A DNA stretch of 41,962 nt, taken from Candidatus Subteraquimicrobium carltonvillense. GTDB lineage: Bacteria > Actinomycetota > Aquicultoria > Subteraquimicrobiales > Subteraquimicrobiaceae. The stretch spans positions 1 through 41,962 of the forward strand of contig DDKQ01000086.1 of assembly GCA_002339355.1 (NCBI GenBank), written 5' to 3'. This document shows positions 6,436 to 41,203 of the stretch, in pieces (positions within the stretch are counted from its first letter, which is position 1; each line of letters starts with the position of its first letter). The notes under the pieces are model-generated. The model ran no database searches. It worked only from the letters and a program-made list of their open reading frames with translations, and was not told the origin of the DNA. The position numbers were made by a program, and so were the translations under genes.

Positions 6436-6449
6436 CATGGAAACTTCAC

Positions 6450-6546
6450 AGATTTAGGGGAGCTCGTGTTACGGGCTGAGAGGTTCGATATCATTGAACG
6501 ACCCTTTGAACCTGCTCTGGGTAATGCCAGCGGAGGGATAATATCT
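6450..6546 (+). promoter_or_regulatory. TPP (THI-box) riboswitch aptamer
   Basis: GGGGAGC...GGCTGAGAGG...ACCCTTTGAACCTGCTCTGGGTAATGCCAGCGGAGGGA is the canonical THI element. It lies directly upstream of thi4-thiE-thiC-thiL-thiD. Confidence 0.93.
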
Positions 6547-6550
6547 TTAT

Positions 6551-6583
6551 AACCGTATTTCCGCTGGAAATACGGTTTTTTTA
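6551..6583 (+). terminator. intrinsic terminator, riboswitch expression platform
   Basis: AACCGTATTTCC / GGAAATACGGTT stem around a short loop, followed by a T run (6577-6583). Confidence 0.8.
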
Positions 6584-18147: not shown

Positions 18148-19159
18148 GATTAATTCCAAACCTCCCGTGGGAATAGTGGGGATTGGCTCCCATGTTCCCG
18201 AAAGAGTGTTGACAAATTTTGATTTAGAGCAGATTGTGGACACCAGCGACGAATGGATTAAGACCCGAACTGGCATCATCCAGAGACGAATAGCCAATGA
18301 GACCATGTGTACTTCAGATTTAGCATCGGAAGCGGGTCGAAAGGCCCTCATTGATGCCAATGTTGATACCGAAGATATTGATCTCATCATCGTGGCTACC
18401 GCTTCACCCGATATGATTTTTCCCTCCACCGCCTGTCTTACCCAGCATAAATTGGGAGCAAGTTGTCCCGCTTTTGACATTTCTGCCGCTTGCACCGGAT
18501 TCATTTATGGTTTATCCGTTGCCTCTCAATATATAGCCACAGGGGCATTCGAGACGATTCTTCTCATTGGGGCTGATGCCCTAACCCGTTATGTAAACTG
18601 GTTGGATAGAAGTACTTGCATACTCTTTGGAGACGGTGCAGGAGCAGTAGTTCTTCAACGTGCTGAAGAAGGATATGGGATATTGGCCAATTATTTGGCC
18701 GCCGATGGCTCTGGCTCAGATTTACTCAAGATACCAGCTGGTGGTGCTCTCATTCCCGGAAGTGAAAAATCCGTCAAAGCTGGACTCCACCACATTCATA
18801 TGAGTGGCAATGAAGTATTTAAATTCGCCGTTCGTGCCATTTCAGATGCAGCGAAAGGAGCACTAAATTTAGCCAATCTTTCTATTGAGGATGTAGATTA
18901 TTTCATCCCCCATCAAGCGAACAAGCGTATTATCGAGACGGCAGTGGAAAAATTAAAGATCAGTCCAGACAAAGTGGTCACCAACATTCACAAATACGGA
19001 AATACTTCTACTGCTTCCATTCCTCTAGCTTTGGATGAAATTTGGCGAGGAAGGAAATTAAAGCGGGGAGACATTTTACTCTTCGTTGGATTCGGTGCTG
19101 GACTCACCTGGGGAGCAAATGTGGTCCGATGGAGCAAGGAGGTCACCAATGGACTTTAG
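18128..19159 (+). CDS. fabH: 3-oxoacyl-ACP synthase III
   Basis: SDEWI..RTGI..R, active-site AACTGF, HQAN.RI, GNTS.ASIP. Confidence 0.93.
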   Translation: MIVRGNKINSKPPVGIVGIGSHVPERVLTNFDLEQIVDTSDEWIKTRTGIIQRRIANETMCTSDLASEAGRKALIDANVDTEDIDLIIVATASPDMIFPSTACLTQHKLGASCPAFDISAACTGFIYGLSVASQYIATGAFETILLIGADALTRYVNWLDRSTCILFGDGAGAVVLQRAEEGYGILANYLAADGSGSDLLKIPAGGALIPGSEKSVKAGLHHIHMSGNEVFKFAVRAISDAAKGALNLANLSIEDVDYFIPHQANKRIIETAVEKLKISPDKVVTNIHKYGNTSTASIPLALDEIWRGRKLKRGDILLFVGFGAGLTWGANVVRWSKEVTNGL

Positions 19160-20087
19160 GACTGAGATTTGCGATCTGCTAGGGATAGAGTTTCCCATTA
19201 TACAAGGAGGGATGGCCTGGGTTGCCACAGCCGAATTGGCAGCTGCTGTTTCAAATGCAGGTGGTTTAGGGATTATTGGTGCCGGGCACATGCCCGCTGC
19301 GGAATTGGAAAGGGAAATCCTCAAGGCAAAGGAGCTCACGGATAAACCTTTTGGTGTAAACCTCATGCTACTTACCCCGCATGTAGACAAACTGTTCAAA
19401 GTCGTTTTAAAAGAAGAAGTACCCATTGTGACGACGGGCGCGGGAAATCCAGGACGACATATGCCCGCTTTAAAGGAAAGGAATATAAAAGTTCTACCCG
19501 TATGCGCCTCCGTTGTTCTAGCACAGCGACTGGAGCGGGTGGGAGCCGATGCGATAATTGCTGAAGGAATGGAGGCAGGGGGACATATCGGAGATTTAAC
19601 CACTATGGTATTGGTACCGCAGGTTGTGGATGTGGTAAACATCCCAGTCATTGCAGCCGGCGGAATCGCAGATGGAAGAGGATTGGCTGCTGCCCTTGCC
19701 CTGGGCGCTAAGGGTGTTCAGATGGGAACAAGGTTTATGTGTGCTGAAGAGTGTACCATTCATCCAAACGTCAAGGGGAAAGTGGTCAAAGCCAGGAACA
19801 GAGATACAGTGGTTACTGGATATTCCACAGGACATCCCGTGCGGGTACTCAAAAATAAGCTGGCTAAGCAGTTTCAAAAGATGGATGCGGAGGGTCGTGG
19901 TGAGGATTTAGAGAAAATGGGGGTGGGCAAGCTCCGATTGGCCATGCGCGAAGGCGATGTAAAATGGGGAAGTGTAATGGCTGGTCAATGTGCTGGATTG
20001 ATACATGAAATTAAAAGCGCTCGAGAGATCATAAGCGATATCGTCACGGAGGCCCGTCGAGTTTTAACCGAATTAAGCGAATGTTAA
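19149..20087 (+). CDS. fabK: enoyl-ACP reductase II (FMN-dependent, FabK)
   Basis: ATG 19149 after AGGAGG, overlapping the fabH stop. FPIIQGGMAWVATAELAAAVSNAGGLGIIGAG, KPFGVNLMLL, VTTGAGNP, AEGMEAGGHIG, IPVIAAGGIADGRG and GSVMAGQCAGL follow pneumococcal FabK closely. Confidence 0.88.
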   Translation: MDFRTEICDLLGIEFPIIQGGMAWVATAELAAAVSNAGGLGIIGAGHMPAAELEREILKAKELTDKPFGVNLMLLTPHVDKLFKVVLKEEVPIVTTGAGNPGRHMPALKERNIKVLPVCASVVLAQRLERVGADAIIAEGMEAGGHIGDLTTMVLVPQVVDVVNIPVIAAGGIADGRGLAAALALGAKGVQMGTRFMCAEECTIHPNVKGKVVKARNRDTVVTGYSTGHPVRVLKNKLAKQFQKMDAEGRGEDLEKMGVGKLRLAMREGDVKWGSVMAGQCAGLIHEIKSAREIISDIVTEARRVLTELSEC

Positions 20088-20105
20088 GGTAAATAAAACT
20101 CGAAA

Positions 20106-20375
20106 TATTAACGAGTTAGGTTGACACTTTATACATTCGAGGGAGGGGTAAGTGCTTAAGAAAACCGTGTCGGAGCCTCATCTATGAAAACCTTTGAACA
20201 TGTTCACAGTTTTGTAGCGAGGCGAGACCCGAGCGGCCCCGAAGGACTCGTTTCACTCGCCAACGGGGGTAAACGGCCGTAACTGCGCCTGCCCCGTAAA
20301 CGCGACAGCGTTCTTCGGGGTGTTTTCGGAGCACTTCACCCCGACCAGGTGTTAACCCATCTTGTTAATAATACA
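20106..20375 (+). repeat. inverted-repeat-bounded structured element, copy 1 (candidate ncRNA or MITE-like element)
   Basis: 5' arm 20106-20166 and 3' arm 20329-20375 recur at 31239-31299 and 31370-31417. The arms pair with each other in three helices. The 162-nt core is GC-rich. Confidence 0.8.
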
Positions 20376-20389
20376 AATTAACTCAAAAG

Positions 20390-21334
20390 ATGGGGGAGAA
20401 TTCGATTCGGAAAATTGCCTTTATCTTTCCCGGACAAGGATCTCAATATGTTGGGATGGGAAGGGCTTTAGTCGCTTTTCCAAAAGTGGCCCAGTTCTTC
20501 AAAGAGGCAGAGAAAATTCTCGGAAGAGATCTTTCCCTCCTATGCTTTCATGGTCCAAGACAAAAATTAGTAGAAACCGTAAATACGCAACCCGCTGTAT
20601 TCATCATTAATTTCATTTGCTGGTTTCTCTTGAACAAAGAGGGTATTAAACCCGATATCGTTGCGGGCCATAGCCTCGGCGAGTACTCCGCGCTGGTAGC
20701 CGCGGGGGTATTGGATTTTTCGGAGGCCCTAAAGCTCGTTGCCAAACGAGCTGAACTTATGGAAGAAGCTTCGAGAGAATTCCCGGGAAAGATGCTTGCG
20801 GTATTGGGCATGGATTCGACATTCGCCGCAGATATCGTGGGCTCTCTGAGAAGCAATGGGATTATTAACATCGCCAATTATAACTGCCCCGGTCAAGTAG
20901 TAATCTCAGGAGAAAAACAGATGGTCGAACGGGCAGCCAAGTTGTTTAAAGAAGCTGGAGCCAAACGCGTTGTGGAACTAGAGGTAGGCGGGGGATTTCA
21001 CTCCCCCTTAATGAAGAAAGCGGAAAGACGATTCGCTAACCACCTGGATGCTATTTCCTTTAAAGATGCTAAAATACCAGTGGTCTCTAATTACACAGCA
21101 AGACTTTCCACAGAGGGTGAAGAGTTGAAAGATGCATTGCGCAAACAAATTACCGGTTCGGTACTCTGGAAGCAATCCATTCTGCAAATGCTCAAAGTGG
21201 GAATCGATGTCTTCATCGAAGTAGGACCAGGCAAAGTTCTTTCCGGACTAGTTAAAAGGACTGCTCCTTCGGTCAAGATTTTAAATGTTGAAGACGCTGA
21301 ATCTTTTCGTCAAACCATACAAGCTCTATTCTAA
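20390..21334 (+). CDS. fabD: malonyl-CoA:ACP transacylase
   Basis: FIFPGQGSQYVGMG, GHSLGEYSALVAAG, GGFHSPLM. Confidence 0.93.
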   Translation: MGENSIRKIAFIFPGQGSQYVGMGRALVAFPKVAQFFKEAEKILGRDLSLLCFHGPRQKLVETVNTQPAVFIINFICWFLLNKEGIKPDIVAGHSLGEYSALVAAGVLDFSEALKLVAKRAELMEEASREFPGKMLAVLGMDSTFAADIVGSLRSNGIINIANYNCPGQVVISGEKQMVERAAKLFKEAGAKRVVELEVGGGFHSPLMKKAERRFANHLDAISFKDAKIPVVSNYTARLSTEGEELKDALRKQITGSVLWKQSILQMLKVGIDVFIEVGPGKVLSGLVKRTAPSVKILNVEDAESFRQTIQALF

Positions 21335-21506
21335 AACTTAGGCTAGACATAAAATCGCCTGAGGTAGACGAAGCTCTTTTTTGCTACAAAAACGGCTTTA
21401 TCTCAAGTTTAAATTCTAATTTCAAAATACTAAGCACTAAACAATATCAAATGTCTAAAATTCAAAAATCAAAACGAGATGAAATGCGATTAGAAGAGCG
21501 TTTAGG

Positions 21507-21600
21507 ATTTCAAAAATTTTGATTTTGAATTTGCTTAGGATTTAGGATTTCGAATTTAGGATTTGAACCAACTTTCTGGAATTATATCCAGGGTATAATC
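21507..21600 (+). repeat. intergenic repeat family, copy A (upstream of fabG)
   Basis: Shares an identical 24-mer TTAGGATTTCGAATTTAGGATTTG (21542-21565) with 24980-25003. The flanks TTTCAAAAATTT..GATTT and TTTCTGGAATTAT..CCAGG.TATA are also similar. Confidence 0.8.
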
Positions 21601-22666: not shown

Positions 22667-22715
22667 CTGCGAATCTACCTAAACAGCAAAATTGTTTTTA
22701 TTGGGGGAATACCTT

Positions 22716-23684
22716 GTGGAGTTGCCCAAATTGAAAATCGGAGAATGGCAGACTTCACTGCCAATTATACAGGGAGGCATGGCAGTTAGAATCTCCCTTG
22801 CCCCTTTGGCTGCAGCTGTGGCTAATGAGGGGGGAGTTGGAATTATTGCTGGTTCGGGGTTACACCCTCCTGAACTCGCTGAACATATTCGTCGTGCTCG
22901 AAAACTGACCGATGGAATTATCGGAGTAAATATCATGGTGGCGCTGGGGGAATTTGCTGAACTTGTTCGGACTGCCATTCGAGAAAAAGTCGATTTAATC
23001 ATATCAGGAGCGGGTTTTTCCCGTGATGCTTTTAAATGGTGCCACAATGCCAACATACCCTTCGTCCCCGTTGTATCCTCGGAAAGGGTTGCTAAATTGG
23101 CCGAAAGATTCGGTGCAGCCACAATAGTGGTGGAGGGTAAAGAGGCGGGTGGTCATTTGGGAACCGATCAGCCTCTTTTATCCATACTGCCCAGAATCAT
23201 AAAGGCAGTTAAAATCCCCGTTATAGCCGCAGGGGGGATTTTTAGAGGAAGTGATATAGCAAAGGTTCTATCCATGGGTGCCAGTGGAGTTCAGATGGGC
23301 ACTCGATTCGCAGCTAGTGAGGAGAGCAACGCCGCAACTGCATGGAAGGAAACCTACGTTAGGGCCAAACCAGAAGATGTCGTAATCATCGAAAGCCCGG
23401 TGGGCATGCCCGGGAGAGCTCTTCTAACTCCCTTCACTAAAGCTCTTTTCGCTGGGAAAGTCCCCAAACCGGTCGACTATAAAAGATGTGTGAAATGTCT
23501 TAAACATTGCAAAAAGAACTATTGCATCATCGAAGCCTTAGTGAGAGCACAGCGGGGTGATATGAAGAGGGGTTTGGTCTTCTGCGGCGAGCGAGTGGGA
23601 GAAGTAAAGGAGATTTTACCCGTCGGGGAAATTATAAAAAATCTAATCGAGGAGTTTAAAGAGGCGACCTTGAGGGTGGTGTAA
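22716..23684 (+). CDS. nitronate monooxygenase-family protein (second FabK-like paralog) with C-terminal Cys cluster
   Basis: LPIIQGGMAV, GVGIIAG, GVNIMV, VEGKEAGGHLG, IPVIAAGGI, GVQMGTRF. Extra CVKCLKHCKKNYC motif. GTG 22716 is preferred (GGGGGA upstream); start uncertain. Confidence 0.75.
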   Translation: MELPKLKIGEWQTSLPIIQGGMAVRISLAPLAAAVANEGGVGIIAGSGLHPPELAEHIRRARKLTDGIIGVNIMVALGEFAELVRTAIREKVDLIISGAGFSRDAFKWCHNANIPFVPVVSSERVAKLAERFGAATIVVEGKEAGGHLGTDQPLLSILPRIIKAVKIPVIAAGGIFRGSDIAKVLSMGASGVQMGTRFAASEESNAATAWKETYVRAKPEDVVIIESPVGMPGRALLTPFTKALFAGKVPKPVDYKRCVKCLKHCKKNYCIIEALVRAQRGDMKRGLVFCGERVGEVKEILPVGEIIKNLIEEFKEATLRVV

Positions 23685-23685
23685 A

Positions 23686-24927
23686 GTGCAGAGAAGGATC
23701 GTAATCACGGGTCTTGGACCGGTGACTCCAATTGGAATTGGTAAGGAAGCCTACTGGCAATCTTTGGTAATGGGTAATTCAGGTATTTCCGAAATCACTC
23801 ACTTCGATGCCAGTGAGTATCCCACCCGTATAGCTGGAGAGATACAAGATTTTGATCCTACTGCTTTCATAGAGCCCAAAGAGGCAAAACGCATGGATCG
23901 CTTCACCCAATTCGCCATCGCCGCCACCAAACTTGCTTTAGACGACGCAAAACTCAAGATTACTCCATCCATAGCCGAGCGAGTGGGTGTGGTAATCGGT
24001 TCTGGAATTGGGGGACTGGGAACCCTCGAGGAACAACACAAAATCCTGTTGGAAAAGGGACCACGCAGAGTGAGTCCATATCTTATCCCCATGATGATCT
24101 GTGATTTAGCAGCGGGGCAGGTTTCCATCTTCTTCGGAGCTAAAGGTCCAAATACCTGTGTGGTTACCGCTTGTGCCGCGAGCACTCACGCCATCGGTGA
24201 CGCCTTTGAGATGATTAAAAGGGGGATCACCGATATTTGCATCGCGGGAGGCTCAGAGGCTAGTATCACTCCCCTTGGTATTTCCGGTTTCTGCGCCTGC
24301 CGAGCTTTATCGAGACGCAATGACGAACCCACGCGTGCCAGCAGACCCTTTGATGCTCAGCGAGATGGATTCGTCATGTCCGAAGGTGCGGGCATCGTTA
24401 TTCTTGAAACCTTGGAAGGTGCTCGATCCCGAGGTGCACACATCTATGCAGAAGTGGTTGGATATGGTCTAACGGGGGATGCTTACCACATTACTGCACC
24501 ATCTCCAACTGGAGAAGGAGCAGCTCGATCAATGCAGATGGCCCTAGACGAGGCTGATCTTTCCCCCGAACAAGTGGACTACATAAATGCGCATGGAACT
24601 TCCACTCCCTATAATGACGAATTTGAAACTATGGCTATAAAAAAGGTATTTGGAAAACACGCTTATGAACTTCTGGTGAGCTCAACAAAATCGATGACAG
24701 GACATCTTCTGGGAGCAGCGGGTGCTATAGAATTAATCGCCTGTGCCATGACCATTGAGACTGGGATCGTTCCCCCCACCATAAATCTGGAAAAACCTGA
24801 TCCCCTCTGCGATTTAAATTACGTTCCCAACATAGCCGTAAAAAGTGATGTTTCCATAGCCATGTCTAACTCTCTGGGATTCGGTGGACATAATGCTACG
24901 CTGGTTATAAAGAGATTTATAGGCTAG
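23686..24927 (+). CDS. fabF: 3-oxoacyl-ACP synthase II
   Basis: RIVITGLG, active-site ACAAS, INAHGTSTP, GHLLGAAG, NSLGFGGHNA. Confidence 0.94.
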   Translation: MQRRIVITGLGPVTPIGIGKEAYWQSLVMGNSGISEITHFDASEYPTRIAGEIQDFDPTAFIEPKEAKRMDRFTQFAIAATKLALDDAKLKITPSIAERVGVVIGSGIGGLGTLEEQHKILLEKGPRRVSPYLIPMMICDLAAGQVSIFFGAKGPNTCVVTACAASTHAIGDAFEMIKRGITDICIAGGSEASITPLGISGFCACRALSRRNDEPTRASRPFDAQRDGFVMSEGAGIVILETLEGARSRGAHIYAEVVGYGLTGDAYHITAPSPTGEGAARSMQMALDEADLSPEQVDYINAHGTSTPYNDEFETMAIKKVFGKHAYELLVSSTKSMTGHLLGAAGAIELIACAMTIETGIVPPTINLEKPDPLCDLNYVPNIAVKSDVSIAMSNSLGFGGHNATLVIKRFIG

Positions 24928-24936
24928 AAATAGATG

Positions 24937-25052
24937 CTTTCAAAAATTTGGATTTAAGAATTTGGATTTGTTTAGAATATTAGGATTTCGAATTTAGGAT
25001 TTGGACTTAAAGGTTGCCAAACTATTTTCTGAAATTATGCCAGGATATATAA
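24937..25052 (+). repeat. intergenic repeat family, copy B (upstream of rnc)
   Basis: See copy A. Identical 24-mer at 24980-25003, then TTTTCTGAAATTATGCCAGGATATATAAA. Confidence 0.8.
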
Positions 25053-25115: not shown

Positions 25116-25796
25116 GTGGAGAAGCATCTGGGCATCACCTTCTCCAATAAGAACTTACTCAAGCGGGCTTTAACCCATAGTTCTTTCGCCTTTGAAATGG
25201 GCATGGATGCAAGGGAAGTTTACGAACGTCTGGAGTTCTTAGGCGATGCCATCCTTAATTTCGTGATCACGGATTTTATCTTCTACCGCTTCCCCAGATT
25301 TAATGAGGGAGAATTGGCAAAATTCAGAGCAAACTTGGTTAACTCTGAAGTTTTGGCTAAAGTGGCTCAAGGGATAGGCTTGGGTGAATTTATTTTTATG
25401 GGCAAAGGAGCTGAACTCACTGGAGGGAGAGAAAGGACATCCATCCTTGCGGATTGTTTTGAAGCCGTATTGGGAGCCATATACCTCGATCAAGATTTAA
25501 GCGTAGTTAGAGAGTTCATTCTCAAAAATTTCAAGGATATGATCTTTGAGCAAACCTTAAAGGAATTCTCGGATTTTAAAACGGCTCTCCAAGAATACAC
25601 TATAGAGAAGCTCGGGGCAGTGCCCGAATACCAAATTACCCGTGAAGAAGGGCCCGTTCACGAAAGAATTTTTCACGTAGAAGTTCTGGTTCAAGGCAAG
25701 ATATTAGGCAAAGGAATGGGTCGGAGTAAGAAAAAAGCAGAACAAAGAGCAGCCCAGGAAGCTTTAGAAACACTACGAAGAGAAACTGATGATTAA
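25116..25796 (+). CDS. rnc: ribonuclease III
   Basis: ERLEFLGDAILNFVI signature, EA.LGAIYLD, and a C-terminal dsRBD (GP.H...F.V.V...G.G.G.SKK.AEQ.AA). Confidence 0.93.
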   Translation: MEKHLGITFSNKNLLKRALTHSSFAFEMGMDAREVYERLEFLGDAILNFVITDFIFYRFPRFNEGELAKFRANLVNSEVLAKVAQGIGLGEFIFMGKGAELTGGRERTSILADCFEAVLGAIYLDQDLSVVREFILKNFKDMIFEQTLKEFSDFKTALQEYTIEKLGAVPEYQITREEGPVHERIFHVEVLVQGKILGKGMGRSKKKAEQRAAQEALETLRRETDD

Positions 25797-26809: not shown

Positions 26810-27053
26810 ACAACCTCCTTTAGGCGGGGCAGGCGGTTGTATTCTAGATATAAACCAAAAACCAATTTATCACATCCTTTCCTTCGGCGAAACACCTTTT
26901 TGAAAAAAATTTTAAACCCGCAGCTGATAAGGAGGAAAAAATTTTCTCGCCGTTTAGCAACTATAACACGTTTTAAGTGGTTGAACAGCACTGATTTATC
27001 GCAGGGTTTATCTGTGATAGAATACCTTTGAGTTGAAGTTAGGAGGGCAGTTT

Positions 27054-29804
27054 TTGTACCTTAAATCTCTTACTCTTCGCGGATTTAAATCCTTTGCTGA
27101 TAAGACACTCTTTAAATTCGAGCCAGGGATAACCATTATTGTCGGACCCAATGGCAGTGGTAAGAGCAATATAACCGATGCCATCCTCTGGGTATTGGGT
27201 GAACAAAATCCCCGAGCACTTCGGGGCTCCTCCATGGAGGATATAATATTTGCAGGGAGTTCCCTGAGACCAGCTCTGGGTTTAGCGGAAGTTTCCCTCT
27301 ATCTCGATAATTCCGATGGTTTCCTCCCCGTTGAATTCTCCGAAGTCGTCATCACTCGAAGAATATTGCGTTCAGGGGAGAGTGAATACCTCATAAATGA
27401 TTCACCCTGCCGCCTTGTGGACATTCAAGATCTCCTCTCAGAAAGCGGTTTGAATAAGGATTGTTCAATCGTCGGTCAAGGCAAACTCGAGGACATCTTG
27501 ACCAGTAAATCCGATGAAAGGAGGATACTCCTTGAAGAAGCTGCGGGAGTCTTGAGACATAAAAACCGTAAGGAAAGAGCCCTACGGAAGCTAGTTTCCA
27601 TGGATCACAATCTGATTCGGATAAAAGATGTGTTACAAGAGGTCAATCGTCAACTAAAACCATTAAAAGTTCAAGCAGATCGAGCTCAGACCCATGAAAA
27701 ACTCTCAAAGCAGTTAAGGGATCTTGAGGTTGAACTTTGTATCATGAAGCTTGAGGAACTTCAATCCGAATGGAATGATCTCAAGATAAAGAAGGAGAAT
27801 TTGAATTCTAAGATCGATGCCTTGAAGGAAGAACTCACATCGGAGAAAAGAAAACTGGAGCAGCTGCACAATAGCTTGGAGGAGAAAGGTATCCAGGTCA
27901 GTGATATTGGAGAGCAACGCCGCCATCTACAAGGAATCTACGAGCGGTTAAATAGTAGGCTTCTCCTTCTCGAAGAAAAGGGCAAGAATTTAATCGAACG
28001 TTTGAGTGAATTTCGGCAGAAAATTCATCAGCTTGAAAAGAGAAAAGACCAAAGAGAAAAGGAGATAGCCCAGCTAAAAGAGGAGAGGTTTGTTACCGAT
28101 ACGGAGCTCAAGCGAATTCACACCTATCTTTCCGAACTTCACCAAAGGATGGAAACCCTTGGAACAAATAGGAAAAAGATTGAGGAGAAAATTGAGCAAA
28201 TTGAGCAGGCAATCTATTCAAAACAATCAAAGCTCGCACAGAAAAAAAGAATATGGGAAGAGGAAGCGACATGGATCGCATTGGAACGCACTTTGGCCAA
28301 AGTCCTTTCCAGTTTAAGGAAACAAGCCAAAAAATTGGCACTCTGCCAACAAAATTTGCTAGATTTATTACAAAAACTTGAGGGAAGAGGATCTTTAAGA
28401 GATTTGACCCAATTATGTCAGGATGTAAAGGCAAAACTCGAAAAAATCCAAGATGAACAGGAAACGATCCAGGAAAATTTCCTTGAAGTTTTGGAGAATC
28501 TTCCCAGACGTGCCACCGCCATTGGAGACAAGCCCCAAAAAAAGCTGAAGGACGAAATTGCATCCCTTGAGGAAGAAATCACCATTTTAGACCATAAAAT
28601 GCAGGTTCTCGAGAAGGAAAAGGGTCTTTCCTCAGAGGAAGGAGATAAAATCCGTAAAGAGATTACCCAATGCCAAGCTGAACTTGCTTCCCTGGAAGAG
28701 CGAAGAGTTTATACAGAGAAACAACTGGTTACAGCCAAGAGAGAGTTAAATGAGGTTGAAGATCTTCTAAAGTCAGAATATGGAATCGCTCGATCACTAG
28801 AGCATTTAAGAAAGCGAATTCAACCCCTCCACAATCTTTTTTGTCAGCTGGTAAGTGAAATTGAGCAGTGGGATTCCAAACTAGAGAACATAGTCACTGA
28901 TGAAGAAAATGTTTCAAGGGGGATTCGAAAATCCATTAAGGAATCCCAAACCAAAGTGGGCTTCTTGGACGGACAAATAGAACAACTACGGGAAAATGTA
29001 CATCGTATCGAAGTTTCCCAGGCTCAACTGGAGCTCGAAGTCAAAACCTTGGTCGAAAAGATCGTGGGGGAATACGGTGTTTCCCTTGAAAAAGCTCTTA
29101 AAGATAGCCCAAGGGGCTCCAAAGGAACCTATGAATTTCAAATTCAAAAGCTAAAAGAGGAAATCGCTAAATTGGGGCCAGTCAACCCCATAGCCTTGAA
29201 AGATTTTGCCGCCTTGGAAGAAAGGCAAAAGTTTCTTAATACCCAAATCAATGACCTTTTAGAAAGCAAGCGAGCTTTGGGGAAGGTCATTAGAGCCATT
29301 GACAAAAAAATCGAGGATAGAATCCTCGAGACCTTCGAGGAAGTTAACCTAAATTTCCAATCAATCTTCTCCTATTTATTTCCAGGTGGAAAGGGTGAAC
29401 TCACCTTAACTGACAGAGATGATGTACTGAATACGGGCATCGATATTGAAGCTCAACCCGGTGGAAAAAGATTGCAGAAATTATCATTATTATCAGGGGG
29501 AGAAACTGCTCTTGTGGCTTTGGCGTTTCTGTTTGCAATTTATCATACGCATCCCAGCCCCTTTTATGTACTCGATGAAGTCGAAGCCACTCTGGATGAC
29601 GTAAATCTACAGCGCTTTATCGCCCTTGTAAGCAAGCTTAGGGGTAAGGTCCAATTCCTCATCATGACCCATCAAGGGCGAACCATGGAAATAGCTGATG
29701 CAATCTACGGTGTTTCCATGCAGGCTGATGGGATATCCAAACTCATTTCACAGAAATTCAAACCGGAAGAGGAAGTAGCGTATGAAAAAGCGGGGAGAAC
29801 TTAA
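27054..29804 (+). CDS. smc: SMC chromosome-condensation ATPase, short form without recognisable hinge
   Basis: TTG 27054 lies 7 nt after AGGAGGG and gives (M)YLKSLTLRGFKSF. Walker A GPNGSGKSN, signature LSLLSGGE, Walker B FYVLDEVEATLD. rnc-smc-ftsY synteny. Confidence 0.85.
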   Translation: MYLKSLTLRGFKSFADKTLFKFEPGITIIVGPNGSGKSNITDAILWVLGEQNPRALRGSSMEDIIFAGSSLRPALGLAEVSLYLDNSDGFLPVEFSEVVITRRILRSGESEYLINDSPCRLVDIQDLLSESGLNKDCSIVGQGKLEDILTSKSDERRILLEEAAGVLRHKNRKERALRKLVSMDHNLIRIKDVLQEVNRQLKPLKVQADRAQTHEKLSKQLRDLEVELCIMKLEELQSEWNDLKIKKENLNSKIDALKEELTSEKRKLEQLHNSLEEKGIQVSDIGEQRRHLQGIYERLNSRLLLLEEKGKNLIERLSEFRQKIHQLEKRKDQREKEIAQLKEERFVTDTELKRIHTYLSELHQRMETLGTNRKKIEEKIEQIEQAIYSKQSKLAQKKRIWEEEATWIALERTLAKVLSSLRKQAKKLALCQQNLLDLLQKLEGRGSLRDLTQLCQDVKAKLEKIQDEQETIQENFLEVLENLPRRATAIGDKPQKKLKDEIASLEEEITILDHKMQVLEKEKGLSSEEGDKIRKEITQCQAELASLEERRVYTEKQLVTAKRELNEVEDLLKSEYGIARSLEHLRKRIQPLHNLFCQLVSEIEQWDSKLENIVTDEENVSRGIRKSIKESQTKVGFLDGQIEQLRENVHRIEVSQAQLELEVKTLVEKIVGEYGVSLEKALKDSPRGSKGTYEFQIQKLKEEIAKLGPVNPIALKDFAALEERQKFLNTQINDLLESKRALGKVIRAIDKKIEDRILETFEEVNLNFQSIFSYLFPGGKGELTLTDRDDVLNTGIDIEAQPGGKRLQKLSLLSGGETALVALAFLFAIYHTHPSPFYVLDEVEATLDDVNLQRFIALVSKLRGKVQFLIMTHQGRTMEIADAIYGVSMQADGISKLISQKFKPEEEVAYEKAGRT

Positions 29805-30738
29805 ACTGAGCGACTCATCAAAGGGTTGGCTTAAAAGGTTAAAAACCGGTTTAAGAAGGAGTCGGGAAAAACTAACCGACCAACTTTTCGATATTTTTTT
29901 GAGAACAACGATACCCGGCGAAAAGGTATGGGATGATATCGAAGAAGTTTTGATTCAAGCGGATGTCGGCATCAAGGCCACCCTTAAAATAGTCCAGGAC
30001 CTTCGAGAACGCGTTGAGATCGAAAGGATCCAAGATCCTCTCCAAATCCTTGGACTACTTAAAGAAGAACTCATCCGCATTCTTGGTGACTCCAAAGAGC
30101 CCCTTCTCCTGGCAAATAAACTCAATGTCTTAATAATCGTTGGGGTCAATGGTGTGGGCAAGACAACTGCTATAGCCAAAATCGCTCATCGAGCTATGAA
30201 AGGAGGTTTAAAAGTCCTCCTCGCCGCCGCGGATACTTTTAGAGCAGCCGCCATTGAGCAACTGGAAATATGGGGGGAAAGAGTTAGAGCTCCCGTTCTA
30301 AAACATCAGAGAGGATCCGACCCAGCAGCTGTGGTCTACGATTCCATCCACGCCTCGCAGGCCAGGGGAGTCAACGTCCTTTTAATCGATACTGCAGGTA
30401 GATTGCATACCTATGTGAATTTAATGGAAGAACTGAAGAAGATCAAGCGCATAGCGGCGAGAGAGGCACCCAAGTCCAACATAAAAACTTTACTGGTCAT
30501 AGACGCTACAACCGGTCAGAATGGAATCGCTCAAGCCAAATTGTTCGATGAAGCTCTCAAAATCGATGGAATAATCCTCACCAAATTGGACGGCACGGCT
30601 AAGGGTGGCATAGTGGTCACCATCGCTGATGAGCTTAGAATACCCATAAATCTCATAGGAGTGGGAGAAAGGCTCGAAGATTTGTGTGAATTTAATGCCA
30701 ACGAGTTCGTTGAAGCCCTTTTATCCAGGGACATTTAG
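29782..30738 (+). CDS. ftsY: signal recognition particle receptor FtsY
   Basis: GVNGVGKTTAIAKIA, DTAGR, TKLDGTAKGG. Overlaps the smc end. Confidence 0.92.
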   Translation: MKKRGELKLSDSSKGWLKRLKTGLRRSREKLTDQLFDIFLRTTIPGEKVWDDIEEVLIQADVGIKATLKIVQDLRERVEIERIQDPLQILGLLKEELIRILGDSKEPLLLANKLNVLIIVGVNGVGKTTAIAKIAHRAMKGGLKVLLAAADTFRAAAIEQLEIWGERVRAPVLKHQRGSDPAAVVYDSIHASQARGVNVLLIDTAGRLHTYVNLMEELKKIKRIAAREAPKSNIKTLLVIDATTGQNGIAQAKLFDEALKIDGIILTKLDGTAKGGIVVTIADELRIPINLIGVGERLEDLCEFNANEFVEALLSRDI

Positions 30739-31109
30739 ACCTTGCCTGCCGGACGGGTAGGCGGGAAATCTTTCTCAAGCACTCTAATGATTTTGCTCTC
30801 AATTTTCTTTTGGACCTCGATGGGCAGATTTGCGAGCCTATACAAAGTCATTATCAAATTGGGTTTTAACATCAGATATCGGGAAACTTTTCGAACCCGA
30901 TATTCCATGAAATAATCGGGTGAGATTCCAAAACCAGCGGCGATTCTTCTGATAACCTCGTCTGAGGGTGCAGGCATCCTGCCTCTTTTTAATTTACTCA
31001 AATAGGTATAATCAACTTTGCACCTGCGCGCAAACTTCCTCAGGCTGACTCCGCACTGCTTAAATAACTCCGTTAGTGCTTCGTGAAAAAGTTCGTGAGA
31101 ATACTTCAT
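30735..31109 (-). CDS. XRE-like helix-turn-helix protein
   Basis: ATG 31109 after AAGGGAGAAAGA. GVSLRKFARRCKVDYTYLSKLKRGRMPAPSDEVIRRIAAGFGISPDYF is an HTH_XRE-type pattern. Confidence 0.6.
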   Translation of the reverse strand: MKYSHELFHEALTELFKQCGVSLRKFARRCKVDYTYLSKLKRGRMPAPSDEVIRRIAAGFGISPDYFMEYRVRKVSRYLMLKPNLIMTLYRLANLPIEVQKKIESKIIRVLEKDFPPTRPAGKV

Positions 31110-31238
31110 TCTTTCTCCCTTGATTTTGAAATTAAATTCCAACTTTATTATCGTTTGCAATCGATTAATACTTTATACTGGATAAAAGATTGTAAGGATA
31201 ATAATTTCCAGAATCCACTTATAAAGGTTACCTTGAAC

Positions 31239-31417
31239 TATTAACGATTTAGGTTGACACTTTTGACATTTAAGGGAGGGGTAAGTGCTTAAGAAAACCT
31301 GCCCGTACGGGGCGGCGGCCGGAGTATTACTTTGGTGAAACTAAAACCAGGCCGACCGCGTGGGCTCACGAGCACTTCACCCCGACCATAGTGTTAACCC
31401 ATCTTGTTAATAATACA
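31239..31417 (+). repeat. inverted-repeat-bounded structured element, copy 2 (candidate ncRNA or MITE-like element)
   Basis: Same arms as 20106-20375, with a 70-nt unrelated GC-rich core. Almost the whole 179 nt can be drawn as one rod (details in findings). Confidence 0.8.
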
Positions 31418-31495
31418 GGTTTACCTACTAGAGATAGGAAGGTGAGTTTACCTTGGCGGATAAGAAATGGGGAGAGAAAATGAGAATCTATGGGG

Positions 31496-32554
31496 TCATT
31501 GGTTCATGCACTCTGTAACAAAAAAATGACCTCTAGCTCGAATCTTTGAGATTTTGGACCAGAGGATATAAACGTCCCCGTTTGGTCTCACCAGACCGGA
31601 TTCCAAAATAGTGTCTTTGGGTGAGGAAGAAAGTGGGATAAGAAGATTTTTACCCTTGCGAGTAATTTTCGCCAAGTAAATAGTCTTGGATTTTGAAGCA
31701 ACCGATTTTGTTCCGGCAAAGTATAGGCTACGCTCCCTGTCCATCCCAAGGCAGACACCGGTAAGTCCCAGGGACTTCCAGGATTCTGAGAGTATAGTTT
31801 TTTGAGTGAAAATGTCCACCATTTTCAATGATTCTTTCTTACCATCCAAAAAAATGAGGTAAACATCATTCCCATGAACAACCCAGGCTATAGGGTATTC
31901 CTCCTTGGAAAGGGAGAGGGTTTTTACCTTTTTAAGCTCCCCTTTCCTGTTGAGAATTTGTACCGTTAAAGAAGATTGAGATATAGATGAGGTGATTATG
32001 CTCCCATTTTTGTATGCTAAATTATTGTGAGAAAAATATAATATTGGATTTCCGATCACCCCCAGGGCTTGTTCTTCAGTTAAAGGATAGATTCTCCCCA
32101 GGAATTTTCCTTGTCTGTCAAACCTCTGAATTTCTATACTGGCAGAGAGGGGCTTATTCGATTCAGAAACCAGCGTCTTGCTCACCCCCATATAAATATT
32201 TTCCCGCTCATCGACACAACATCCCCAGATGCGATAGGCGGAATATTTTACCTCATTCGAATCGGTCTCTGGTGCGATGGCGAGTTTCTTTCGAGGAACT
32301 ATCTTCAAAAGTAGTTTCCCTTTGGGATTGAATTTTCTCACCGCGAAATCTCCTTCGGCAACGTATATATTCCCGGCATTATCCAGTATCAAAAAGGGTG
32401 TTCCCCGAGCTTCTAGAGAATTTAAGGTATAAGATACCGAGGTAATAATCTTTGGTTTACCATACTTGCTGGATATTGATTTTCCTCCACAACCCATTAA
32501 ACTAAAGATCAACGGGAGGATTATACTCACAACTATTTTCCGAGATATTCTCAC
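31496..32554 (-). CDS. hypothetical lipoprotein, beta-rich (propeller-like) fold
   Basis: Lipobox LMGC after a signal peptide. Repetitive beta-strand-like segments (G.IY., NG.IY). No family recognised. Confidence 0.55.
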   Translation of the reverse strand: MRISRKIVVSIILPLIFSLMGCGGKSISSKYGKPKIITSVSYTLNSLEARGTPFLILDNAGNIYVAEGDFAVRKFNPKGKLLLKIVPRKKLAIAPETDSNEVKYSAYRIWGCCVDERENIYMGVSKTLVSESNKPLSASIEIQRFDRQGKFLGRIYPLTEEQALGVIGNPILYFSHNNLAYKNGSIITSSISQSSLTVQILNRKGELKKVKTLSLSKEEYPIAWVVHGNDVYLIFLDGKKESLKMVDIFTQKTILSESWKSLGLTGVCLGMDRERSLYFAGTKSVASKSKTIYLAKITRKGKNLLIPLSSSPKDTILESGLVRPNGDVYILWSKISKIRARGHFFVTECMNQ

Positions 32555-39129: not shown

Positions 39130-40094
39130 GGCTTGCAAGATGTCTCTAAACAATTACTTAACGAGTGCAAGGAAATCGGCGTGAACTTCATAACCCTGGT
39201 GGGTGGTGAACCCTTCATCTATGGACCATCCTTGAGATCTTTGAAGATCATAAGGATATGGTCTTTCAGGTCTTCACTAACGGAACGATGATCAATGAGA
39301 AAATGGCTGAAAAACTTGCAGAATTAGGCAACGTTGCTCCAGCCATTAGTATTGAGGAATTCAAGGGGGAAACGGACGCCCGCCGTGGTCGAAGGACCTT
39401 CGATGCAATCATGCACGCCATGGATCACTTAAAAGAAGCTGGGGTCTTATTTTTCTTCTCCGTTTGCTCAACACGTCACAATTATAAAGTGGTCGTAAGC
39501 GATGAATTCGTTGATATGCTCATGAAAAAGGGAGCTGCTCTGGGTTGGTATTTCCACTACATGCCCATTGGTCGCGATTGCGATCTGAGTGTAATGCCCA
39601 CACCGGAGCAGAGAAACTATGTAAGAGCCAGGGTTAACCATTTAAGATCGCGAAAGCCCATTCTGCTCGTGGACTTCTGGGGCGATGGACCCTTGGTGGA
39701 GGGTTGTCTTGCCGGAGGGAAGCTCTATGTCCACATAAATAACAAGGGTGATGTGGAACCGTGTATCTTTTGCCACTTTGCCGTCGACAATATCAAGGAT
39801 AAAAGCTTAATGCAAGCCCTCAATTCCCATTTCTTCAAAGCAATTAGAAGAAGCCAGCCCTTTGGACATAACGATCTCAGACCTTGCCCCTTAATAGACC
39901 ACCCGGGTGCCATGGCCGGATTGGTCGAAAAATACAGTGCTTATCCAACTCATGAGGGAGCGGAGAGCTTATTCGGTGAATTCATTCCACACTTAAGAGA
40001 ATATGCACGGAATGTCACCCAAATATATAAAAAGGTTTGGGATGAAGAGTACAAGTGGGTCTATGACTGGAGACATCAAAAATCAAAGGAGTAA
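39130..40094 (+). pseudogene. radical SAM enzyme remnant (5'-truncated, frameshifted), C-terminal Cys-rich auxiliary domain retained
   Basis: Frame 1 from 39130 reads ...QLLNECKEIGVNFITLVGGEPFIYGP, the GGEP motif. The protein continues in another frame as ILEIFEDHKDMVFQVFTNGT... (ORF 39258..40094), so there is a 1-nt shift near 39226-39230. There is no room upstream for the CxxxCxxC segment, because yraN ends at 39051. Confidence 0.7.
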
Positions 40095-40117
40095 AAAAGA
40101 ATCCAGGAAGTTAAATT

Positions 40118-41203
40118 ATGAAAATAAGACTTTTAAATTTCCTCAGTTGCCCCTTTTGTGGTGGATTTTTCAGACTACACTCTTTCCTGGCGAGAAATGA
40201 TTTTGAAACATGTGTAACGAATATCAAATGTTGTGAAAGATTTTGCGGCCTGAAGAATCGCCTTGTAACAGATTTACATGAGAAGATCGATGAAATCTGT
40301 CCGTTTTGCCATCGCATCGAAGTTGTGGATGGACTCTTAAAATGCCGGTGTGGGAGCATTTTCCCCATAGTCGATGAAATACCTCGCTTACTTACCCAAG
40401 CTCTCGCCAACTGGAGACAATTTTTGACAAAATATCAAAGGGAAATATCATATTACGTGGATTTGAAACGAATAACCATCGAATCATACCAGGGTGAGAA
40501 GGGAAGAACAAAGAGAATCTTCAGCTTAGAATGGCAGATGCTTTCACCTCGGGATCCTGTTTGGGGAATGAGCATCGAATTGAGGAAAAATGCTTTCATA
40601 GAAGGAATGGACATTGATCCGGTCATGTTAAAGAACAAAATTCTCCTTGATGCAGGTTGTGGAAACGGTACTCTATCCATTGCTCTAAGTGATTTTGGTT
40701 TAGAAGTAGTGGGGCTGGACTTAAGTTTAGGTATTGAGCAAGCAAATCAATATAAGAAAGAGCATAAATCCTCAAAATCGGGTTATGTCCACCTCGTCCA
40801 AGGTGATATATTGAATCCTCCTTTGCAAAGGAAATCCTTCGACTTCATTTATTCTGCGGGTGTCCTCCATCACACCCCAGATACCGAACAAGCCTTTAGG
40901 GGGTTCATTCCACTATTGAAGTCCGGTGGCAGGATGTATATCTGGCTCTATAAGAATATCTTTATATTCACCGGGATTATAAATATACTGAGATGGTTCA
41001 CCACAAAGACTCCTCCCATAATACTCTATTATTTATGCTATTCATTGGCTCCCATCTATAAATTGATTTCCATCCTTCCAGAATATTCCCATAACCACGA
41101 CTCTGATGAGGTACGGACCTGGTTTCTTGAAACCGGTTTTAAGAATGTCACCTTAAGGAGTGTGGGACCACGCGGTTTTGGTATGTATGGAGATCGTATC
41201 TAA
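40118..41203 (+). CDS. class I SAM-dependent methyltransferase with N-terminal Trm112-like zinc ribbon split by a Cys-rich insert
   Basis: LLNFLSCPFCGG ... LLKCRCGSIFPIVDEIPRLL (Trm112-type ribbon). LDAGCGNG motif I, VLHH, GGRMYIW. Confidence 0.75.
   Translation: MKIRLLNFLSCPFCGGFFRLHSFLARNDFETCVTNIKCCERFCGLKNRLVTDLHEKIDEICPFCHRIEVVDGLLKCRCGSIFPIVDEIPRLLTQALANWRQFLTKYQREISYYVDLKRITIESYQGEKGRTKRIFSLEWQMLSPRDPVWGMSIELRKNAFIEGMDIDPVMLKNKILLDAGCGNGTLSIALSDFGLEVVGLDLSLGIEQANQYKKEHKSSKSGYVHLVQGDILNPPLQRKSFDFIYSAGVLHHTPDTEQAFRGFIPLLKSGGRMYIWLYKNIFIFTGIINILRWFTTKTPPIILYYLCYSLAPIYKLISILPEYSHNHDSDEVRTWFLETGFKNVTLRSVGPRGFGMYGDRI

Follow-up and report, generated by a model that had tools for sequence, protein, structure and literature searches.

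Probable BOX-like interspersed repeat with exchangeable GC-rich cores in an uncultured Actinomycetota lineage

Contig DDKQ01000086.1 of the Candidatus Subteraquimicrobium carltonvillense assembly GCA_002339355.1 was analyzed over positions 1 to 41,962, and this whole stretch of 41,962 nucleotides is referred to here as the window. It carries a core lipid-synthesis (fab) operon in which plsX, fabH, and fabK are followed by a gap and then by fabD. A sequence-only reading of the window had proposed that this gap is not a plain spacer but holds a structured element, and that a second copy of the element is present in the same DNA. We find that both copies belong to a noncoding, modular element whose position, state, and core vary among related genomes (Table 1). 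Copy 1 has the same sense as the operon in which it is embedded and precedes the fabD start by 14 nt. The genes between the copies are fabD, fabG, acpP, a fabK paralogue, fabF, rnc, a PcsB-like gene, smc, ftsY, and a minus-strand Xre-type helix-turn-helix (HTH) gene, and copy 2 is followed by a minus-strand gene for a lipoprotein-like protein and then by ffh. Copy 2 is therefore antisense to both of its neighbors. Gene calls confirmed that the fabK-fabD gap measures 302 nt and that rnc lies about 5 kb downstream of copy 1, as had been stated earlier.

Each copy consists of two conserved arms, 68 and 47 nt long, that are imperfect inverted repeats of each other and enclose an exchangeable core, here called core 1 or core 2. 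The near-verbatim recurrence of the arms at 31239-31299 and 31370-31417, noticed in the sequence-only reading, was reproduced: the 5′ arms are 90% identical over 68 nt (56 of 61 positions over 20106-20166), and the 3′ arms are the same except for a single mismatch and one extra base. Counts for a 21-mer of the 5′ arm and a 19-mer of the 3′ arm gave exactly two occurrences of each in the window, where about zero are expected by chance. The cores, in contrast, are unrelated and GC-rich, again as first described. No similarity between them was found by blastn, and their GC contents of 57.4% and 62.9% compare with 37-45% for the arms and 44.4% for the window.

The outer part of the 5′ arm (TATTAACGAG / GGTTGACAC) pairs with the 3′ arm, and the inner part GGGGTAAGTGCT pairs with AGCACTTcACCCC. 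In every full copy, the inverted ends TATTAACGAGTTAGGTTGACAC / GTGTTAACCCATCTTGTTAATA pair as 10 plus 9-11 bp. A stretch of 27 nt in the 5′ arm, AGGGAGGGGTAAGTGCTTAAGAAAACC, is identical in copy 1, copy 2, and a third copy (L001) found at a heme-synthesis locus of another genome. Overall, elements range from 186 to 303 nt (about 190-300 bp), with cores of about 160-190 nt for the core 1 type and 70 nt for the core 2 type.

Table 1. Coordinates in the window of the two element copies, their core hairpins, and associated features
Feature	Positions	Strand	Remarks
Copy 1, 5′ arm (terminal module)	20099..20166	+	68 nt
Copy 1, core type 1	20167..20328	+	162 nt, 57.4% GC
Copy 1, 3′ arm (terminal module)	20329..20375	+	47 nt; ends ...CTTGTTAATAATACA, beyond which three independent loci diverge
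Core-1 hairpin H1	20263..20297	+	13 pairs
Core-1 hairpin H2	20299..20312	+	AACGC-GACA-GCGTT; five pairs
Copy 2, 5′ arm	31232..31299	+	flanked by two minus-strand genes
Copy 2, core type 2	31300..31369	+	70 nt, 62.9% GC; unrelated to core 1
Copy 2, 3′ arm	31370..31417	+	
Segment present in window, L005, and L015 and absent from L006 and L018	31199..31442	.	larger than the conserved element; AAGG direct repeats at its bounds
fabK-like gene (NMO family)	19086-20087		
fabD	20390-21334		
rnc	25116-25796		

Several related sequences were available for comparison with the window. Two NCBI metagenome-assembled genomes (MAGs) labeled “Actinomycetota bacterium,” L005 (GCA_030018275.1) and L015 (GCA_030019535.1), share approximately 96-98% DNA identity with it, and another MAG with the same label, L006 (GCA_040755895.1), together with the Logan contig L018, shares approximately 91%. 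Much more distant are L010 and L007 (GCA_030019215.1, isolate Yes46-11), whose housekeeping proteins are 57-76% identical to those of the window and whose genes show 65-72% DNA identity. Here the order of fab genes also differs, and there is a full-length structural maintenance of chromosomes (SMC) protein. Contig Ga0326299_1000051 of JGI metagenome 3300032204 is identical to the window.

Across this set, the element occupies unrelated intergenic sites in either orientation, and the same site can be filled, empty, truncated, or internally deleted in different relatives. The copy-2 site is empty in L006 and L018, in which 244-247 nt of the window are missing and the junction is clean and bounded by AAGG. 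At the corresponding position in L005, the first 44 nt of the 5′ arm are joined to TAATACA, with the deletion lying between two TTAA repeats. In L015, the arms at this site are of the copy-2 type, but the middle that they enclose is of the core 1 type and has 90% identity with that of the fab copy in the window. The comparison of L015 with the window at this one orthologous locus establishes that the core swap proposed in the sequence-only reading is real and that it separates genomes that are 96-98% identical.

A different form of decay is observed at the fab site of L005 and L015. All that is left there is the 3′ arm together with the 3′ half of core 1; 135 nt including the whole 5′ arm are gone, and the paired rod thus cannot form. 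The surrounding fab genes are 98-99% identical to those of the window and intact, except for the second fabK paralogue. Furthermore, when the 3′ half of core 1 was compared over an alignment of 90 columns, the fab copy of the window proved to be 97.6% identical to the L015 copy at the HTH site, whereas it is 88.5% identical to the orthologous fab remnant. These values point to recombination or conversion between copies. In the more distant L010, where gene order differs, there is no element at fabD.

Movement between lineages is indicated by the copy in Yes46-11 (L001/L007). This full copy has a radical-SAM gene on one side and a siroheme-decarboxylase-like gene on the other, both on the opposite strand, and its middle is of the core 1 type with a 26-nt insertion. 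Relative to copy 1, DNA identity is 95% and 90% for the two arms and 87% for the core. Because the genes of this host have only the 65-72% DNA identity to the window noted above, these values of 87-95% indicate that the element has moved between lineages. At the heme locus of a relative whose siroheme-decarboxylase-like protein is 58% identical to that of L001, the gap is 107 nt and no match to the arms was found.

Broader scans yielded few additional examples. When the 5′-arm 21-mer was searched against 185,579 species genomes, we recovered the L001 copy as the one real hit and a chance match in a coding region (L002), and the same 21-mer had no match among viral or metagenome contigs. The sole match to a 3′-arm 20-mer was a chance occurrence in a coding region of metagenome contig L004. 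No match was found in viral contigs for a degenerate 3′-arm pattern or for a core-1 21-mer, nor in plasmids and phages when the element was searched with blastn. Likewise, nhmmer profiles of both arms, run with filters off on all collected loci (approximately 300 kb of sequence, which was also scanned for enzymes), did not reveal diverged extra copies, and a literature search with the arm sequences returned nothing. The copy density in the sequence seen is about one per 20-25 kb. Three short-read Logan contigs from the source samples (L003, L008, and L016) end within the arms or near the junction of arm and core. Such ends appear compatible with several copies per sample, and the repeated breaks within the element indicate that it may disrupt short-read assemblies of these MAGs.

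The limits of the element can be located approximately. The sequence common to the three independent loci extends from about T(N)GAA(A/C)TATTAACGA to CTTGTTAATAATACA, and the loci diverge outside it. Imperfect direct repeats of 7-8 nt abut these ends, reading GGTTACC/GGTTTACC at the HTH locus and CCCAATA/CCCCATA at the heme locus. For the fab locus, the pair AATAAAAC/AATTAAC was picked by eye, and the best-scoring match returned by the aligner is not at the boundary. Flanks from the same locus score 10-11 versus 6-8 for six cross-locus comparisons, with single-locus shuffle p values of 0.04-0.54, each weak on its own. The analysis of flanking repeats and the alignment to the empty site place the insertion boundaries differently.

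Taken together, these observations lead us to conclude, with somewhat better than even confidence, that the element is a noncoding, modular composite interspersed repeat of the BOX type or similar to MITEs (miniature inverted-repeat transposable elements), which recombines between its copies and decays by deletion. It is probably mobile. The best reading is that it constitutes a new repeat family of a known kind, from an uncultured Actinomycetota lineage, rather than a new class of RNA gene. Copies are smaller than approximately 500 bp and have no coding capacity, their termini are inverted repeats, and they are dispersed and polymorphic for presence and absence (three loci, with empty sites in L006 and L018 and remnants in L005 and L015), all of which are properties of MITEs. 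The conserved paired ends and the variable internal modules that fold by themselves are properties of BOX elements. Among the candidate explanations offered by the sequence-only reading, a cargo-carrying MITE is accordingly the one best favored by the unrelated loci, the empty and decayed sites, the nearly identical copy in a distant genome, and the core exchange at one site.

Certain observations fit this conclusion poorly. Only three independent insertion loci are known, and neither a full-length insertion sequence (IS) with the same ends nor any transposase was seen in the window or the approximately 300 kb of collected loci. The flanking repeats are imperfect and individually not significant. 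At the copy-2 site, filled and empty forms differ by 244-247 nt, a segment that has AAGG repeats at its bounds and exceeds the conserved element in length. Typical MITEs are AT-rich, whereas here the arms (37-45% GC) enclose cores of 57-63% GC in DNA of 44.4% GC. Finally, fully maintained pairing in the core-1 hairpins and strand-biased folding, which are described below, would not be needed by a parasite that exists solely as double-stranded DNA.

The route by which such a family might arise and persist can be sketched. A transposase supplied in trans would recognize the inverted ends and insert the copies, as weak evidence of flanking duplications of approximately 7-8 bp suggests. The shared arms would allow homologous recombination or gene conversion to replace one core with another, and deletions between short direct repeats (TTAA, for example) would remove the long hairpins. 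Given that copy 1 lies in sense within the fab operon, the fabK-fabD mRNA is expected to fold at this position into a long imperfect hairpin, provided that the element is co-transcribed with the genes. This hairpin could be cut by RNase III or could alter mRNA stability, as for Correia, ERIC, and BOX elements, but as a by-product and not as a dedicated function. RNase III processing of copy 1 is thus a plausible side effect of co-transcription.

Both window copies are predicted to fold strongly. Minimum free energies are −111.7 kcal/mol for copy 1 (z = −6.25) and −72.9 kcal/mol for copy 2 (z = −5.46). The three helices between the arms and the two core hairpins (20264-68 with 20292-96, and 20299-303 with 20308-12) that had been proposed from inspection of the sequence all appear in the minimum-free-energy folds. 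The clearest evidence for maintained structure was obtained with the 3′ half of core 1, for which the 90-column alignment includes five copies. The 18 pairs of hairpins H1 and H2 are paired in 90 of 90 cells. Five of these pairs have changed on both sides, two in H1 and three of the five in H2, and the remaining variation in H1 retains pairing as G:U. Compensatory forms of H2 are GGCAC..GTGCC in L005 and L015 and GACGC..GCGTC in L001, each with the GAYA loop kept. The covariation score for H1 and H2 is 0.322, compared to 0.195 in shuffled alignments, and none of 500 shuffles reached the observed value. Control helices slid along the alignment are paired at just 30-51%.

Strand preference is indicated by similar observations. 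In H1 and H2, variable pairs include G:U when read on the + strand but never A.C, and each of the four full copies folds better as the + strand than as its complement, by 3-14 kcal/mol. These results lend weak support to the earlier proposal that the structure forms from the + strand. A comparison of copy 1 with L001 shows changes to be about twice as frequent at unpaired as at paired positions. For the whole rod, in contrast, the covariation term across three full copies is approximately zero and nine pairs are broken. A substitution test gave 20 kept and 8 broken pairs on the + strand versus 16 kept and 14 broken on the − strand, and the outcome varies with the reference copy. For these reasons, H1 and H2 alone are used here as evidence of structure. 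Even in these hairpins, conversion from other members of the family may have brought in part of the coordinated stem changes in a single step. The high GC content of the cores, the covariation in H1 and H2, and the bias toward the + strand are atypical of simple MITEs and keep two minority readings alive.

The first of these, which we consider unlikely although it is the strongest competitor, is that the copies are structured noncoding RNA genes or RNA cassettes. The paired arms would be a closing or processing stem that stabilizes or releases different GC-rich core RNAs, and the DNA would spread as RNA genes rather than as parasites. The compensated H1 and H2 pairs with their G:U variants, the greater stability of the + strand in every full copy, the lower variability of paired positions, and the high GC content of the cores all agree with this proposal. 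Nevertheless, neither copy has promoter-like or terminator-like sites in or beside it, two of the three independent loci place the element antisense to flanking genes, and the sister genomes have a truncated copy at one site, with an internally deleted copy at the other in one of them. The near-zero covariation term and the nine broken pairs in the whole rod, the reference-dependent strand asymmetry of substitutions, and the lack of any Rfam match likewise speak against functional RNA genes.

Searches for known RNAs support this assessment. Four copies were compared with Rfam, whose families include 6S RNA, Y RNA/YrlA, signal recognition particle (SRP) RNA, RNase P, transfer-messenger RNA (tmRNA), HEARO/omega RNA, ROOL, GOLLD, raiA, riboswitches, and small ribozymes. 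None had a hit at the gathering score. For two of them, the best sub-threshold hits were at chance level (E values of 0.28-4, with 13-21 bits where the cut-offs are 37-61 bits), and the other two matched nothing in Rfam at E ≤ 1. ARAGORN found neither tRNA nor tmRNA. The initial impression that no known RNA class can be recognized is thus borne out. A 6S-like or Y-RNA-like rod, suggested earlier, finds no support, as there is no Rfam hit for the four copies even at E ≤ 1-10, no promoter or terminator, and both copies have decayed in sister genomes. A guide or bridge-type RNA fares no better, with no recombinase, TnpB, or reverse transcriptase beside any copy. Specifically, IS110 recombinases, TnpB/IscB, and reverse transcriptases are absent as neighbors; the actual neighbors are fabK and fabD, the Xre-type HTH and lipoprotein-like genes, and the radical-SAM and siroheme-decarboxylase-like genes.

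Other candidate identities were also discarded. An SRP RNA, an idea prompted by the proximity of ftsY and ffh to copy 2, was set aside because there is no Rfam hit, and no internal promoter was found. A small peptide or type I toxin was considered because GGGAGGGG followed by GTG would encode MLKKT... in both window copies and L001. This possibility was rejected: the peptides are 9-17 aa long, unrelated past residue 5, and shifted in frame in L015. More generally, open reading frames (ORFs) that cross the element vary in frame and length among copies and none is conserved, and a protein database search with the longest of them, a spurious ORF of 107 aa spanning the L001 copy, returned nothing.

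A second alternative, which we regard as distinctly improbable, is that the element acts as a hairpin of single-stranded DNA. The folded strand would be the site for a Y1/HUH transposase, in the manner of REPIN elements and RAYT, or for a tyrosine recombinase, as for attC or a folded phage attP, and the core would be a variable terminal structure. Strand-asymmetric folding and compensatory changes without transcription signals are what such a site might be expected to display, and both window copies have the same orientation. In addition, the outer arms contain TATTAAC-(7)-GTTGAC ... GTTAAC-(7)-GTTAATA, which when folded yields two AAC/GTT boxes with a 3x3 internal loop between them, and there is a bulged C in the inner helix; this arrangement loosely resembles the R and L boxes of attC, with extrahelical bases. 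However, the window and the collected loci contain neither a RAYT nor an IS200/IS605 transposase nor an integron integrase, and there are no cassette ORFs. The elements, at 186-303 nt, are far longer than attC sites (57-141 nt) and REPs, their R″ and R′ boxes match the attC consensus at just five of seven positions, and the L001 copy is opposite in strand to its neighboring genes. The wider enzyme survey found no transposase, reverse transcriptase, TnpB, or integron integrase in the window or adjoining any copy. The sole tyrosine recombinase seen is an XerC/D-like gene by dprA, approximately 15 kb from copy 2.

A related and equally doubtful proposal is that the arms are a portable scaffold for interchangeable structured cassettes, with selection acting on a single-stranded form of the + strand, RNA or DNA, and with the GC-rich cores as functional cargo that moves between loci by directed exchange rather than by ordinary recombination. 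If true, this would describe a new kind of mobile RNA-cassette or single-stranded DNA-cassette system and not a passive MITE. Similarly, if core compensation reflects a real function of the single strand, the family would be a natural example of a conserved stem that presents different structured cargos.

The last alternative, a dedicated cis-regulator that evolved in place in the fabK-fabD gap and serves in RNase III cleavage, attenuation, or translational coupling, draws on the sense orientation of copy 1 just upstream of fabD, the strong fold, and the presence of rnc 5 kb downstream, but it is very improbable, because the fab copy has lost its 5′ arm and half of its core in L005 and L015, which are 98% identical across fab genes that remain intact bar the second fabK paralogue, and also given that the same element occurs at two unrelated loci and that L010, with its different gene order, has none at fabD. 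For the same reason, the RNase III module put forward in the sequence-only reading cannot be maintained as a dedicated fab device.

Some other features of the window merit description in their own right. The Xre-type HTH gene and the gene for the 352-aa lipoprotein-like protein, which has no Pfam match, occupy 30735-32554 on the minus strand, with ftsY on one side and ffh on the other. The distance from ftsY to ffh is 108 nt in the distant relative L010, and the gene pair consequently looks inserted, with copy 2 inside it. The window carries an intact second FabK-like (NMO family) gene at 22692-23684, between acpP and fabF. Its counterpart in L005 and L015 lacks 253 nt (window 23114-23366), and no gene is called there. 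The SMC-like gene at 27033-29804 encodes a lineage protein of 916-923 aa (in the window, L005, L015, and L006) without a hit to the SMC hinge (PF06470), whereas almost all other listed homologues, including that of Yes46-11, are 1173-1201 aa long, have the hinge, and cover approximately 40-75% of the query. A thiamine pyrophosphate (TPP) riboswitch at 6446-6555 (71.6 bits, E = 2.6e-12), upstream of thi4, thiE-like, and thiC genes, is the sole Rfam match in the window.

What looks like a second family of small insertions lies in the fab operon, at 21329-21595 (between fabD and fabG) and 24918-25047 (between fabF and rnc). L005 and L015 lack these segments and have intergenic gaps of approximately 22 and 40 nt in their place. 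The segments have the termini T(A/T)AGGCTAGA ... CCAGG(G/A)TATA(A/T)T, with near-perfect direct repeats on either side (CTAAAAC/CTAAAAC and AAGAGATT/AAAAGATT). The two copies share a 69-nt stretch with 81% identity that is made of TTAGGATTT-like units of 9-10 nt. They look like recently inserted MITEs with a duplication of 7-8 bp. The occurrence of such an element in the same operon suggests that small elements have inserted recently in this genome. A further difference concerns a 2-kb stretch of the window (39146-41177) that holds a radical-SAM/SPASM gene and a methyltransferase gene. The corresponding region of L015 (22160-22751) retains only five short blocks of it (53-281 nt, 96-99% identical). 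These losses, together with other deletions of 130-270 nt, suggest that the sister MAGs either have a strong bias toward deletion or suffer from problems of assembly.

Interpretation of the element as a composite interspersed repeat has practical consequences. The 302-nt gap in a core lipid-synthesis operon is explained as an insertion of selfish DNA, and it should not be annotated as a regulatory RNA. The family adds an undescribed repeat to what is known of a poorly known, uncultured Actinomycetota lineage, and its behaviors include transfer between hosts whose proteins are only approximately 60-75% identical, replacement of one core by another at a single orthologous locus, and rapid decay through deletions. 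The arms should also be useful as markers for strain typing.

Among known systems, integron attC sites are 57-141 nt long, carry the boxes R″ (RYYYAAC) and R′ (GTTRRRY), lie beside cassette ORFs and intI, and fold in one strand with extrahelical bases and a variable terminal structure. The element resembles them in its imperfect inverted repeats with AAC...GTT ends, its one-strand fold with unpaired or bulged bases, and its variable terminal structure. Unlike attC, it is 186-303 nt long and occurs without cassette ORFs, intI, or an array, and TATTAAC and GTTAATA each match the consensus at five of seven positions. The box matches, the length, and the absence of cassettes and intI do not fit an attC site.

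REPIN and BIME elements, which are mobilized by RAYT, consist of paired inverted units that form a long hairpin with a less conserved spacer, have a mosaic composition, and are under selection for hairpin pairing on one strand. The paired inverted units, the less conserved spacer, the mosaic composition, and signs of selection for pairing in one strand have counterparts here. However, the arms of the present element are unlike the short palindromes of REPs, its length is several times greater, and no RAYT gene was seen in any collected locus.

The Correia elements of Neisseria (CREE/NEMIS) and the ERIC/IRU elements of enterobacteria are small inverted-repeat elements with a conserved core and length variants that occupy intergenic and intra-operon positions, as does the element described here. 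They form long hairpins in mRNA that can be cut by RNase III (Correia) or RNase E (ERIC) (PMC2649163, PMC2229807, PMC3049150). More broadly, transcript hairpins of Correia, ERIC, and BIME elements are cut by RNase III or RNase E or act through attenuation (PMC2649163, PMC2229807). The 26-bp inverted repeats, TA duplication, and IHF site of Correia elements were not found in our element.

The closest parallel is with the BOX repeats of Streptococcus pneumoniae and S. suis (boxA - boxB(n)/boxD - boxC, with boxE/boxF). In these repeats, conserved boxA and boxC ends of approximately 50-60 nt pair with each other within a tight stem, while internal modules vary in number and kind and fold by themselves; they are largely dormant, nonautonomous parasites that alter co-transcribed genes through secondary structure (PMC3049150). 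The likeness is architectural only, with no sequence homology expected in a host of a different phylum. The internal modules here are unrelated GC-rich structured segments and not tandem boxB units, the apparent copy density of about one per 20-25 kb is low, and no candidate IS partner is known here, whereas ISSpn2 has been proposed as the partner of BOX. Nevertheless, both systems have paired conserved ends (arms of 68 and 47 nt here) around internal modules that vary and fold largely on their own (cores of 70-190 nt here), and BOX elements likewise range from less than 100 to several hundred bp. BOX elements are also intergenic, sometimes co-transcribed, and mostly dormant, and they occur in some lineages but are missing from close relatives (PMC3049150); the present element shares the intergenic placement and patchy distribution and is probably likewise co-transcribed at some sites and mostly dormant.

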